From Pseudomonadota bacterium (lineage in GTDB: Bacteria > Pseudomonadota > Alphaproteobacteria > Rickettsiales > Rickettsiaceae): a stretch of DNA of 64,000 nt. This document shows positions 9,001-15,000 of the stretch, piece after piece (position 1 is the stretch's first letter; the number at the start of each line of letters is the position of its first letter). Position numbers: made by a program. The stretch covers positions 6,847-70,846 of the forward strand of contig JBEGTS010000041.1 in assembly GCA_041179265.1 (NCBI GenBank), read 5' to 3'.

Positions 9001-12000
9001 AAGTTTTCAAATGAGGTAAAAGTACAACTAATTAATTTTTTACTGGTAATAATTAGTGGACAATCTAGGGTAGCACGTTTTTATTCAGTATTTCCTATTT
9101 TGGAGCTGATTACTCAAGACGTAAACTTTAAAAATACTCTTCATGGCTGCGTAATTAAACGCACTCAAAACGAGTTACTTATATACAGGGAATTCGGTAG
9201 AAAATTACCTGAGAGTAAAATATTACTAGATAAACCCGTTATTTGGGACAATAGGTTTCGTATCACCAAAAATCAAGAAACTCTAAATTGTTTTGTAACT
9301 CATTTATCGTTGGAAGATTATAAAATAATAAAAAAACAATTAGATTTAGAACCTTTGAAAAATCTATCCTGCAAAAACCACAATGCAATTTTATTTACCT
9401 TGCCTATCATTAAAATACTTGAAAAAGTTATAGCAATACCACATATATCATATTATGATAACGACATGTGGAACTTTGAAGTATCTTTTGCTCCAAATTT
9501 TGTATCTCGTTTCACCCATTTTTGCTAACACCGGTGCTTAAATACCGGTAAAAATTTTTATTAGGTTTTATATCGATGAATAATCAAGGTAGAAGTATTT
9601 TAGCTTGGGCAGCACTTTTTGTTTTTGTAATATTACTTTTTAATGTTTTCCAATCTGACGGTTTACTTGGCGGAAGAAATAATATAACTTTCTCGGATTT
9701 TTTAACACGAGTTGATGAAAAGACCGTTAATTCGGTAAAAATTCAAGGTAGAGTAATTGAAGGCACTTCAAATGACGGCTCTACTTTTAACACTTATGCT
9801 CCTGATTATCCTGATTTAGTAAATCGTCTTACTAGCAGTGACGTTAATATTGAAGTCGTACCTCTTGAAACAAGAATGAATACTTTTTTAGGTTTTTTAA
9901 TTTCTTGGTTTCCGATGCTTTTATTAATAGGTGTTTGGGTGTTCTTTATGCGTCAAATGCATGGCGGCGGGAAAGCCATGGGGTTTGGAAAATCTAAGGC
10001 TAAATTATTATCAGATAAAGGACCTAAAGTTACATTTAAAGATGTAGCCGGTATTAATGAAGCAAAAGAAGAATTAACGGAAATCGTCGACTTTTTAAGA
10101 GATCCTAGTAAATTTCAAAAACTTGGCGGTAAAATTCCAAAAGGTTGTTTACTAATAGGGCTACCCGGAACGGGAAAAACCCTTTTAGCAAAAGCAATAG
10201 CCGGTGAGGCTAATGTGCCATTCTTTAGTATTTCAGGCTCTGATTTTGTTGAGATGTTTGTTGGAGTCGGTGCAAGCCGTGTGCGAGATATGTTTGAACA
10301 AGGCAAATGTAATGCACCTTGTATTATCTTTATTGATGAGATTGATGCGGTAGGTCGCCATAGAGGCATCGGCATGGGCGGCGGTAATGATGAACGTGAG
10401 CAAACACTTAACCAAATGTTAGTCGAAATGGACGGATTTGAAACAAATGAGGGAGTTGTTATTATTGCAGCTACAAACCGTCCCGATGTTCTTGATCCGG
10501 CATTACTAAGACCTGGAAGATTTGATCGACAAATTACAGTGTCTAATCCTGATATTGATGGCAGAGAACAAATATTACAAGTACATTTGAAAAAAATAAA
10601 ATATAGCTCTAAAGTTTTACCTAGAATTATTGCTAGAGGTACCCCGGGATTTTCAGGTGCCGAACTTGCTAATCTAGTCAATGAAGCCGCTTTACTTGCT
10701 GCACGTCGTGGCAAAAAAGAAGTTGATATGACGGATTTAGAAGAAGCAAAAGATAAGGTTTTAATGGGTGTAGAGCGTCGTTCCATGGCTATGTCCGATG
10801 CAGAAAAAAAATTAACTGCTTATCATGAAGGCGGACATGCTTTGGTAGGGCTCTATTGTTCCGCTTCCGATCCTATTCATAAAGCTACTATTATACCCAG
10901 AGGTAGAGCACTTGGAATGGTTATGAGATTACCGGAAAATGATCGTTTCTCTATGGCACGTGATAAAATGAAAGCAGATATCGCGGTTGCCATGGCAGGC
11001 AGAGTAGCTGAAGAAATTATATTTGGTGAAGATAAAGTGACTTCAGGAGCATCATCCGATATAAAAATGGCAACTAGAATGGCAAAAGCTATGGTTACGG
11101 AATGGGGGCTAAGCGATGAAGTCGGACCGATATTTTATGGTTCTAACAATGAAGATTTATATGCTAGAAGAAGTAATGATGAAAGATCGGAAAAAACCTC
11201 CGAATTAATAGATTTTGAGGTGAAAAAAATTATTACCGAAGGATATAATTTTGCTAAAAATATTTTAACTAAGCATATGGATCAACTACACGTACTTGCC
11301 AATGCTTTAGTAGAATATGAAACATTATCAGGTCACCAAATTAAAAATTTACTCAGTGGTAAGTCTTTAGATTCTGAGGAGGAAAATACCTTTCCTTTTG
11401 GTACTTCACCGGTTATTAAGGTAGATAAAGAAAAATCACCTGAAAAAGCAAAAACAACTAAAGCTAAAAAAGAAAACGCCGCTTCTTAAGCTTTAATAGT
11501 ATAATTTATGTATAAATTTATAGATTTATTTTGTGGTATTGGTGGCTTTAGAAAAGCTTTGGAAACAAAGGGGCTTGAATGTGTTTTTTCCTCTGATATA
11601 GACAAAGATATACAAGAAGTATACAAAAGAAATTTCGGTGATAAGCCGCACGGTGATATTACGGAAATACCGGAAAACAAAATCCCTAAACATGATATTT
11701 TATGTGCCGGTTTTCCCTGCCAGTCTTTTAGTATTTCAGGTAAGAGGCTTGGTATAGATGATAATAACGGTAGACTCTTTTATGAAATAATCAGAATAGC
11801 ACAATATCACAAACCTTATATATTATTACTTGAAAATGTTAAAAATATTCTGAATATTAATAATGGCAGCGTAATTGAAACTATAGACCAGAAATTAAAT
11901 GAGATTGGCTATAAAGTATATAGAAATGTATTAAATGCTTCCTTATTTGGAGTGCCTCAAGCAAGAGAAAGGGTTTATTTTGTTTGTTTAAGAAAAGATT

Positions 12001-15000
12001 TTAGCAGTGAATATACACTCAAATACGTAAAACCGGAAGAATCTTATGAAAGGATTTTTCTAGATGATATTTTAGAAAAGGATGTTGATAAAAGTTTATA
12101 TATTAATAGAGATGATATTGTTTTAGATAAAACACCGGTTAAAAAGCAATTAAAACCGATTAGAATCGGTCAGGTTAATAAAGGCGGTCAAGGTGAAAGG
12201 ATTTATAGCCCTTACGGTCATTCAATAACTTTATCTGCGTTTGGTGGCGGTGTCGGTGCTAGAACCGGTCTTTATTATATAAATGATAAAATCAGAAGAT
12301 TATCAATTAATGAATGCAAGCGTTTGATGGGACTTCCTCAAAATCATTATGTTGCAGATGGGTTAAGAGGCTATCAGCAATTAGGCAATTCAGTAATTCC
12401 ACAAATAATAACAAATATTTATGACTCAATAAGAGCAGTGTAATGGATAATGGAAATGCACATATAGGTAAAAGTGTAGAAGTCCTTTTCAAATGCAGCA
12501 TTAGCGAACATGTTGATATAATAGATAAAATTAGAGATATTTTTAAAATAGACGGTAGCTTTTTACACGCTGTTAATACAGGAATATATGGAGAAAAAGC
12601 TGATATTAAAATGAGCTTTAGTTGCGGTCATAATATAGATGTAAGTATTAAAGCATATAAACAAGCAATAGCATACAATCAGCTTACAAGAGCATCAATA
12701 AGTAATTTTTGTAAAACATTTGATTTAGATTGCTTAGAGTATCTACAAAACTTGATAATTAACAAATCAAGAAATGTTAAATCAAATTTTATTCCACTTG
12801 ACGAACAAGAAAGAGTGTTATTAATTTTTCAGCCTATGGCAAAAGAAATGGTTAAATGGTCGTTCTCAAATGAAACTGCCAGAGAGTTATTAGTTTTATA
12901 TCAAAGAGAAGAAAATTTAATGCGTATATATTTAATGCAAGATGTTCTAAAAGCTCTAAATTATGATATTATTTTTACAAATAAGGGTAATATTATAATA
13001 GGTAATTATATTGTAATTCAACGAAAAGGCGGTAATGGTTCTTTAAGTAAAACAATCCCTAAAGATTCAATTAGACATCCTGGTAATAACATTCAACTAA
13101 AATTAAAAATCAAAGATTTTGTTAATGGTATGAAAGATTGTGAATTAGCTAATTATTTTGTATAGTTCTAAAAATAAATTTTAAGAGAGTACTTAAATGG
13201 CAGAGTTAAGGTTACCGCCAAATTCAGTAGTAAAAAAAGGTAGGGAGCATAAAGAAAACGGGGAAATGCTAAAACCTCGTAAAATAAAGATTTATAGATA
13301 TAATCCTGACCTTGATGAGAATCCTACTGTCGATAGTTTTGAGATAGATTTAAGTAAAACCGGACCAATGGTTTTAGATGCTTTAATTAAAATCAAGAAT
13401 GAGATTGATTCGACTCTAACATTTAGACGTTCTTGTCGTGAAGGAATTTGCGGTAGTTGTTCCATGAATATTGACGGCACAAATACTTTAGCATGTATTA
13501 AACCGATAGAAGACATATCGGGTGATATCAAGATCTATCCGCTTCCTCATATGAAAGTGGTAAAAGATTTAGTGCCTGACATGTCGCATTTTTATGCACA
13601 ATATGAATCTATAGAACCTTGGCTTAAAACTGATAGCCCTACTCCTTCAAATTCTGAAAGATTACAATCAATTAAAGACCGTGAAAAACTTGACGGTTTA
13701 TATGAATGTATATTATGTGCTTGCTGTTCTACTTCCTGTCCTAGCTATTGGTGGAACGGCGATAAATATTTAGGTCCTGCAATTTTACTACAAGCATATA
13801 GATGGATTGCCGATTCAAGAGATGATCATACGGGCGAACGCCTTGAAGCTTTAGAAGACCCGTTTAAGCTTTATCGTTGCCATACGATTATGAACTGTAC
13901 TAAGACCTGCCCGAAAGGCCTAAATCCTGCTAAAGCTATCGGTAAGATAAAAACTTTAATTGCAGAACGTCATGGCGTGTGATTCTTAATTAATTATTTC
14001 TAAAAATGGTAAAATAATGAAAAAAGCAATTATTTTCTGTTGGCTATTTCTTAGTTCGATATCTTATGCTTTTGCTGTTGATTGCAATAAAGCCCTAACA
14101 CAAGGTGATATGAATTATTGTGCAGGTGAAGAATATAAGAAAGTTGATAAGAAACTAAATCAAATATATCAAGAAATATTAAAGCATATTTCAGAGGAAC
14201 AAGTTAATTTGCTTAAAAAATCCCAAAATTTATGGATTAAGTACCGAGATGCTGAATGTGAGTTTCAGAGTTCCGGGGTTTATGGCGGTTCTGTATATCC
14301 AATGATACTGCTTATGTGTTTTACAGGAAAAACCGAAGGGCGTATCAAAGAATTTGAAGCTATGCTGAAATGTGAAGAAGGCGACTTAAGTTGTCCATTT
14401 ATAATCAAGACACAGAACTGAGATTAATTCATTATCTGTAATACTTTAAATAATGTTCCCATTTGTTTTGGGGATATTAGTCTTTCTACTTGCTTTTCTA
14501 TTATTTGTGCTTGCTCATCGTTAAGCTTGTCTTGTAATGTTTGCTTGCGTAATAATATCCCGTTTTCTATTAAAAAATCTCGTTGCGATATTGTATCTAT
14601 TACGTTCATGCTGCTATTTTTAGCTACCGTTTTTAATGCGTAAAAATCCACATGTGCAGATAAATCAGCTTCTCCAAGATTTTCAAGGATGGGACAATAT
14701 TTATGATTTTTAACCGCTTGTAATGTTGGATTATATTGATATCTAGTTCTATTACTTGGAGCTATATCATAGCCGTAATCTATTATTAAGCAGCTGCCGC
14801 TTAGTTTTTTTAGATGTTTAGCTATAAATTTTATGATTTCTATCGATTTGTAAGATTCTTCAAGAACTGCTCCATCTTTTGCTTCAACATGAGTACGCAG
14901 CAGATATTCTTGTAATTGCTTGTTAACGCTTATTTTATCGTATTTAATTCTTCCGTCTACCGGTTGTACCACAAATATTCTTTCATACCATAATTCCTTG

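Follow-up and report, generated by a model that had tools for sequence, protein, structure and literature searches.

Two genes placed between the core genes ftsH and sdhB of a Rickettsiaceae bacterium raise the question of whether a member of an obligate intracellular genus keeps a working restriction-modification (R-M) system, how such a system came to be there, and what it has done to the genome around it. The genes lie on contig JBEGTS010000041.1 of assembly GCA_041179265.1 (this genome is called G000 below), within positions 6,847 to 70,846 of the forward strand. This whole stretch of 64,000 nucleotides (C41:6847-70846) is referred to here as the window, and positions given for the locus are positions within it. 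The first gene, M, is a 311-aa open reading frame (ORF; 11508-12443) that is predicted to encode a C5 DNA methyltransferase of the M.HhaI type. The second, R, is a 240-aa ORF (12443-13165) that is predicted to encode a restriction endonuclease of a divergent HinP1I subfamily. Both ORFs are complete and both lie on the plus strand.

The original prediction, made from the sequence of the window, was that these genes form an active type II system directed at GCGC. An intact GCGC type II pair is indeed supported, by the HhaI-type target-recognition domain (TRD) of M, the HinP1I fold and profile of R, purifying selection on both genes, and a purge of GCGC from the genome. That the system is active we infer from the same evidence. 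Judged by sequence and modelled structure, the pair is a divergent HinP1I/HhaI-type GCGC R-M system. Two features of type IIP systems are present, namely separate, adjacent, and co-oriented M and R genes and a cognate site that is under-represented in the host genome. We consider it likely that the locus holds an intact and probably active orthodox type IIP pair, embedded among core genes and inherited vertically.

Methyltransferase specificity and nuclease fold

M matches the Pfam family PF00145 (DNA_methylase) with an E value of 8e-82, over profile positions 1-322 of 324, and TIGR00675 with an E value of 3e-78. It contains the C5 motifs DLFCGIGGF (I), GFPCQ (IV), ENVKN (VI), PQARERV (VIII), RRLSINE (IX), and GNSV (X). 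The cysteine of motif IV is the catalytic residue of C5 methyltransferases. In M, sequence and alignment place it at Cys71 (codon 11718-11720, plus strand), equivalent to Cys81 of M.HhaI. The best matches of M among PDB sequences are all M.HhaI (E 3e-91, 309 bits), with M residues 3-304 aligned on residues 13-314. The next match, M.HaeIII, aligns over residues 4-170 only, which is the catalytic half. Because the M.HaeIII alignment ends at residue 170, the variable target-recognition domain of M is specifically HhaI-like.

The resemblance to M.HhaI that was first noticed in short TRD strings is borne out by this alignment, which includes both recognition loops. These read NKGGQGERIYS and ITLSAFGGG in M, and GKGGQGERIYS and ITLSAYGGG in M.HhaI. 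Identity over the two recognition loops is ~62%, and Q and R are kept at the positions of Q237 and R240, which in M.HhaI recognise the outer G:C pair (PMC7026639). The predicted product of M is G-5mC-G-C, with the inner cytosine of each GCGC strand methylated. M.HhaI itself (Haemophilus parahaemolyticus, PDB 1MHT family) is 47% identical to M overall, and all ten C5 motifs are common to both. Compared with M.HhaI, M is missing 10 residues at the N-terminus as well as the C-terminal tail, and carries Phe in place of Tyr254. The two also differ in their natural partners, since that of M is HinP1I-like and not R.HhaI, an enzyme that has a third domain and cleaves GCG^C (PMC7026639).

R alone matches no Pfam (PF11463 included, E <= 1), NCBIfam, or PADLOC model, and a plain sequence search of the PDB (phmmer) returns no match, HinP1I included. 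A word-indexed search finds 28 homologues, all unnamed or hypothetical, among them proteins of Rickettsia tillamookensis (88% identity) and Endomicrobium, while an exhaustive profile search reaches 207 cluster representatives at E <= 1e-3. Searched as a profile, 27 R sequences give only a weak match to MspI (E 0.15). An AlphaFold2 model of R, built with 27 homologues, has a pLDDT of 89.9 and a pTM of 0.84. Foldseek places this model closest to HinP1I in the PDB (2fkc_A, E 7e-9; 1ynm, E 4e-7, TM 0.65 over 245 columns), with MspI third at E 1.4e-3 and the remainder noise. Direct profile comparison points the same way. With hhalign, the 27-sequence profile aligns to the HinP1I sequence, verified to be identical to 1ynm_A, at E 6e-6, and a profile of 84 family members aligns to HinP1I (1ynm_A) at E 5e-29, positions 4-232 on 7-245. 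In addition, PF11463 (R-HINP1I) is matched by 40 of these 84 members, with a best E value of 8e-37. R is placed by its modelled fold and by transitive sequence homology in a divergent branch of the HinP1I family.

The comparison with R.HinP1I (Haemophilus influenzae P1, PDB 1YNM/2FKC), which cuts G^CGC, can be made in detail. The two enzymes have the same fold (full-length TM up to 0.65) and are alike in size, with 240 aa in R and 247 aa in HinP1I, and both are paired with a GCGC C5 methylase. They have in common an E...D...x-x-K active-site layout and the base-contact positions Q93 and K223. The motif resemblance noted from the start also holds, as FNQ and IQRKGG..N..Q.K occur in both and agree with fold and profile. 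The differences are nonetheless considerable. Identity is 13-15%, Ser replaces Q81, and Arg replaces K96. The hairpin between D and S-x-K has 13 residues in R and 18 in HinP1I, and R carries a 9-residue insertion (SLSKTIPKD...) after QRKGGNG. MspI, a monomeric relative of HinP1I that cuts C^CGG, also resembles R, with D54 of R on D99 and R position 68-I-K70 on N117-I-K119 in the profile alignment, and the N-I-K of MspI is found in most close homologues of R. However, its recognition sequence and recognition half are different from those of R, and its match is much weaker than that of HinP1I.

Residue equivalences between R and HinP1I were taken from the 84-member profile alignment, with the HinP1I active-site residues numbered after Yang et al. 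2005, in which they are reportedly E18, D62, Q81, and K83. E13 (codon 12479-12481), the acidic active-site residue of the first helix, corresponds to E18, and the position is E in 74/84 members. D54 (12602-12604) corresponds to D62 and to D99 of MspI, and is D in 81/84. S68-I-K70 (12644-12652) corresponds to Q81-V-K83 and to N117-I-K119 of MspI, with K in 81/84. The sequences themselves give a gapless register of S68-Q80 in R with Q81-Q93 in HinP1I, and HMM alignment confirms the equivalence of S68 and Q81. A different hhalign register, with D66 on Q81, was rejected: it requires a 2-residue gap, and D66 is unconserved in the 84 members (G 37, D 14, R 14), whereas K70 is conserved.

The S-I-K of R had been flagged at the outset as a departure from the Q-V-K of HinP1I. 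The alignment of these positions holds, but serine is the commonest residue there (S 45, N 29, T 5, and Q 1 in the 84 members). By this alignment, S-x-K is the norm of the family and HinP1I the exception, and the serine is no sign of a defect. Active sites with S-x-K are known in working enzymes of the Cfr10I group. As Ser68 is found in both species that have an intact pair (G000 and a congener, G025), it predates the period over which purifying selection can be seen in them.

The positions that would contact DNA are also conserved. Q80 to R83 (NQLTR; 12680-12691) corresponds to Q93 and K96 of HinP1I, and Q193-R-K195-G-G (13019-13033) to Q221-R-K223-G-G in the profile alignment and in hhalign. 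The profile alignment further equates N215..Q218.K220 with N233..Q236.K238. All of the codons listed for R are on the plus strand. Across the family, the Q93 position is Q or H (60 and 23 members, respectively), the K96 position is an invariant R (84/84), and the K223 position is K. In HinP1I, K96 reads G1, and K223 together with Q93 reads the next (second) G:C pair (PMC7026639). R is predicted to be a monomeric nuclease whose PD-(D/E)XK-type site is formed by E13, D54, S68, and K70, and which would read GCGC through Q80, R83, and K195 and cut unmethylated G^CGC.

Selection and decay at the ftsH–sdhB site

The two intact orthologous pairs, those of G000 and G025, allow dN/dS to be computed for both genes. 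The ratio is 0.061 for M (dS 0.46) and 0.192 for R (dS 0.29), compared with 0.024 for sdhB (dS 0.50). Synonymous changes are in excess in both (Fisher p 6e-33 for M and 8e-10 for R). M and R are both under purifying selection.

A survey of 28 species genomes of the genus, G000 included, shows how seldom the pair has been kept. Adjacent ftsH and sdhB genes are found in 28/28, and the locus or its remnants lie between them in 13/28. Both genes are intact in two species, G000 and G025 (M 95% and R 88% identical). G020 has an intact M and a destroyed R. Both genes are pseudogenes in G001, G002, G006, G008, G009, and G011, and M is broken or fragmentary with R gone in G004, G021, G015, and G026. 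The remaining 15 genomes have no trace of the locus. Their spacers extend 6-117 nt past the last aligned ftsH residue in G003, G005, G010, G012, G013, G014, G016, G018, G019, G022, and G024, and 243-748 nt in G007, G027, G023, and G017. The complete pair is rare in the genus, and one correction to the original prediction is that the locus is ancestral and no unusual newcomer.

Genus-wide synteny, a genome-like composition (GC content 31.5% in M and 26.8% in R, with 32.2% in the genome), and scattered losses together indicate a locus that is ancestral and has been repeatedly lost. We take the pair to have occupied the ftsH-sdhB site before the sampled genus diversified, and to have been vertically inherited since. 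Recent horizontal acquisition was considered and rejected on the grounds of this synteny, the matching composition, a dS similar to that of sdhB, and the absence of a nearby mobility gene. In a tree of sdhB and 1.5 kb downstream, a short alignment of limited weight, the two intact pairs belong to separate clades, and both have species that lost the system as neighbours. The nearest relative of G000 is G021 (~92% nucleotide identity), in which R is lost and M is broken. Purifying selection would have kept the pair in the G000 lineage and in one other, with many losses elsewhere.

The order of decay is informative. An intact R with a broken M occurs in 0/13 genomes that have the locus or its remnants, and four lineages show clearly more decay in R than in M. 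A nuclease that kills cells lacking its methylase would be expected to decay in this order, with R going first or as far as M. Successive natural stages of R-M decay, with the nuclease going first, can be read cleanly at this single syntenic position. Our search of the literature found no report of this R-M system, of its decay series, or of GCGC avoidance in Rickettsia.

The methylase that survives in G020 (G020:C1:1488186-1492106, at about 1504-2421, minus strand) has a 2-residue deletion in its second recognition loop, where SAFGG--GARTG stands against SAFGGGVGARTG. This deletion may have impaired or altered the enzyme.

The arrangement of the locus is compact. Its boundaries are ftsH on the left (9576-11489, plus strand) and sdhB on the right (13197-13982, plus strand), core genes in a conserved neighbourhood. 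M begins 18 nt after the ftsH stop at 11489, and R ends 31 nt before the sdhB start at 13197. M and R overlap in a TAATG (12441-12445, plus strand), made up of the stop codon of M (TAA, 12441-12443) and the start codon of R (ATG, 12443-12445), which suggests that their translation is coupled. These features of the original prediction, from the complete C5 methyltransferase and the 240-aa ORF to the overlap and the two short gaps, were all confirmed from the ORFs and the sequence. So was its remark that no mobility gene is present, as no transposase or integrase ORF lies within 8.1-16.8 kb of the window.

No terminator-like hairpins separate the four genes from ftsH to sdhB. Promoter-like matches at the locus are not above those of shuffled sequence (22 found, 23.6 expected). 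Consequently, co-transcription of M and R with ftsH and sdhB is plausible. With neither a controller gene nor a terminator around the pair, it would probably be transcribed together with its core neighbours. The C-terminal 300 residues of FtsH (window 10587-11489) are ~76% identical between G000 and G025, genomes whose SdhB proteins are 97% identical. Between G000 and G021 the same part of FtsH is 96% identical, and its Lys/Glu-rich tail is fast-evolving.

GCGC depletion and competing explanations

The 1.385-Mb assembly contains 83 GCGC sites where 1107 are expected under a maximal-order Markov model. No other of the 256 tetranucleotides has so low an observed/expected ratio (O/E, 0.075 for GCGC), and GCGC is ~13-fold rarer than expected. 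Only one site lies in the window, and it is outside the R-M genes. On contig C29, at ~22.7-24.7 kb, seven of the 83 fall close together in an ORF-free, 23S rRNA-like region, and the spacing of sites is similar in G025.

For comparison, 100-200 kb was sampled from each of 19 congeners and from one other genus. An O/E of 0.03-0.08 is found in five congeners with the locus or its remnants (G025, G020, G004, G001, and G002), and also in four with no trace of it (G012, G013, G022, and G010). The ratio is 0.25-0.44 in G011, G009, G015, G026, G024, G018, G003, and G021, and about 0.75 in G007 and G017. In G035, from another genus of the family, it is 1.02. A simple link between depletion and the integrity of the locus is only partly supported by these figures. 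A gradient was apparent in the first eight genomes and was broken by twelve more, in which empty sites are accompanied by ratios of 0.03-0.08 and G021 stands at 0.44.

Several of these results weigh against an intact and active GCGC pair. Depletion is equally strong in the four congeners with empty sites. Of these, two (G010 and G012) lack any C5 methylase gene, and the other two (G013 and G022) each carry, elsewhere in the genome, one intact C5 methylase that is unrelated. Two genomes in which M and R are both pseudogenes, G001 and G002, are strongly depleted as well. Since GCGC is depleted in genomes where the locus is absent or decayed, the depletion is a legacy of the lineage and no proof of present activity. 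The target of the genus-wide purge matches the predicted specificity of the locus exactly, but is not cleanly tied to its present state. Furthermore, the assignment of R rests on its fold and on transitive profile homology at 13-15% identity, and R is under looser constraint than M (dN/dS 0.19 and 0.06, respectively).

The closest relative provides a clue to timing. G021 and G000 have in common 0 of 26 aligned GCGC sites, and the ratio in G021 has reached 0.44 at ~8% nucleotide divergence. With no sites in common, this suggests that depletion relaxes fairly fast, the changes being unpolarised, and that the pressure on G000 persists or ended only very recently. Avoidance of cognate sites in the host genome is a known effect of orthodox type II systems that are long-lived, and this avoidance can outlast the system (Rusinov et al. 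2015, PMC4687349). As in those systems, the cognate palindrome is strongly under-represented here, and avoidance persists in relatives without the system. Unlike that general picture, a whole decay series is preserved at one site between core genes in an obligate intracellular genus, and the depletion is unusually deep (O/E 0.03-0.08).

Where relatives have GCGC, G000 mostly has GCTC/GAGC or GCAC/GTGC, so that mainly the two inner positions have changed. These changes are mostly synonymous, from the Ala codon GCG to GCT or GCA before C. Transversions are as common among them as transitions, except in comparison with the closest relative, and GTGC/GCAC is not over-represented in G000 (O/E 0.90). 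No vsr gene is present anywhere in G000, and deamination of 5mC would therefore go unrepaired by the Vsr route. The pattern of substitution follows the codon frame, is no clear mark of 5mC deamination, and does not tell it apart from selection against cuttable sites. Both processes may have a part.

The alternative that survives best is a solitary methyltransferase, with R a dead or repurposed relative of HinP1I, for example a GCGC-binding protein, and the purge caused by unrepaired 5mC deamination. Such an explanation would fit the lack of vsr in G000 and the state of G020, where M is kept, R is destroyed, and GCGC is at its lowest level of all (O/E 0.03). The serine at the Q81 position of HinP1I, which might be thought to favour it, loses its force because Ser is the commonest residue at position 68 (45/84), and R has kept E13, D54, and K70 together with all of the DNA-contact residues. 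R does evolve faster than M, but a dN/dS of 0.19 over a dS of ~0.3 indicates that R is still selected, and R decays first or as far as M, as would be expected of a toxic nuclease. We regard a solitary methyltransferase as unlikely.

A second alternative is that the genes of G000 are intact by chance, already released from selection, with nothing expressed or active. This is the fate towards which most copies have moved, in that 11/13 loci are pseudogenised in at least one gene and, in the genome nearest to G000 (G021), R is gone and M is broken. Two full-length, lesion-free ORFs with complete termini and low dN/dS are hard to reconcile with such a release, as is the contrast between an O/E of 0.075 in G000 and 0.44 in G021 at so small a divergence, and we give chance survival very little credence. 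The least probable alternative, a working pair with a site other than GCGC, can appeal to a specificity that is predicted only, to the low identity of R and HinP1I (13-15%), and to the Arg at K96, but it is opposed by near-identity of both M recognition loops to those of M.HhaI, by conservation of the known HinP1I base-contact positions in R, and by GCGC being, as no other word is, an extreme outlier among the 256 tetranucleotides.

An intact GCGC R-M pair therefore remains the likely explanation, and it has consequences for both the genome and its study. The strongest oligonucleotide bias in Rickettsia genomes would be the imprint of an ancestral GCGC system. The pair might help to keep out plasmids or DNA arriving by conjugation. 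One would expect the two species with both genes intact to cut foreign DNA at unmethylated GCGC, a point that matters for genetic work on them. A fuller scenario is that a domesticated R-M pair, inherited vertically since the ancestor of the genus, itself drove the 13- to 30-fold purge of GCGC. As the purge is deep in empty-site congeners and yet relaxation in G021 was quick, this would require either that many losses are extremely recent or that a second, unrecognised GCGC-directed factor acts. We consider this scenario possible but doubtful.

The second most depleted tetranucleotide in G000 is GGCC, with 400 sites seen and 1298 expected (O/E 0.31; genus range 0.12-0.61). G000 has only one C5 methylase, which is of the GCGC type, and a HaeIII-like system, since lost, may have left the GGCC depletion behind.

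Homologous pairs in other contexts

In each of the contexts examined, the R family member comes directly after a C5 methylase of 311-315 aa whose recognition loops are the same. A homologous pair on an Endomicrobium contig (3052-5145) is followed by vsr, giving the order M-R-Vsr, and the pair is found on two further metagenome contigs. No relatives were found in phage records, and among plasmids they were found in Borreliella only.

The pair appears to move in some of these relatives. On a Logan contig of DRR086824 (1201-5169), a pair that is 77% identical has neighbours other than ftsH and sdhB: it comes straight after an IS1595 transposase, with an Mrr_cat gene close by. This IS1595-adjacent copy indicates that the module is mobile in some relatives. 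On one contig, the methylase is interrupted by IS1595.

Borreliella burgdorferi N40 carries an M-then-R pair on its linear plasmid lp28-5 (NC_017415.1, 2052-3723), with M 68% and R 43% identical. The assignment proposed here gives a putative function to ~200 cluster representatives that are recorded as hypothetical, a divergent HinP1I branch missed by the Pfam model. The newly assigned family includes the Rickettsia tillamookensis orthologue and the gene on lp28-5 of B. burgdorferi N40. Borreliella burgdorferi is also tick-borne, and its lp28-5 R gene is annotated as hypothetical.

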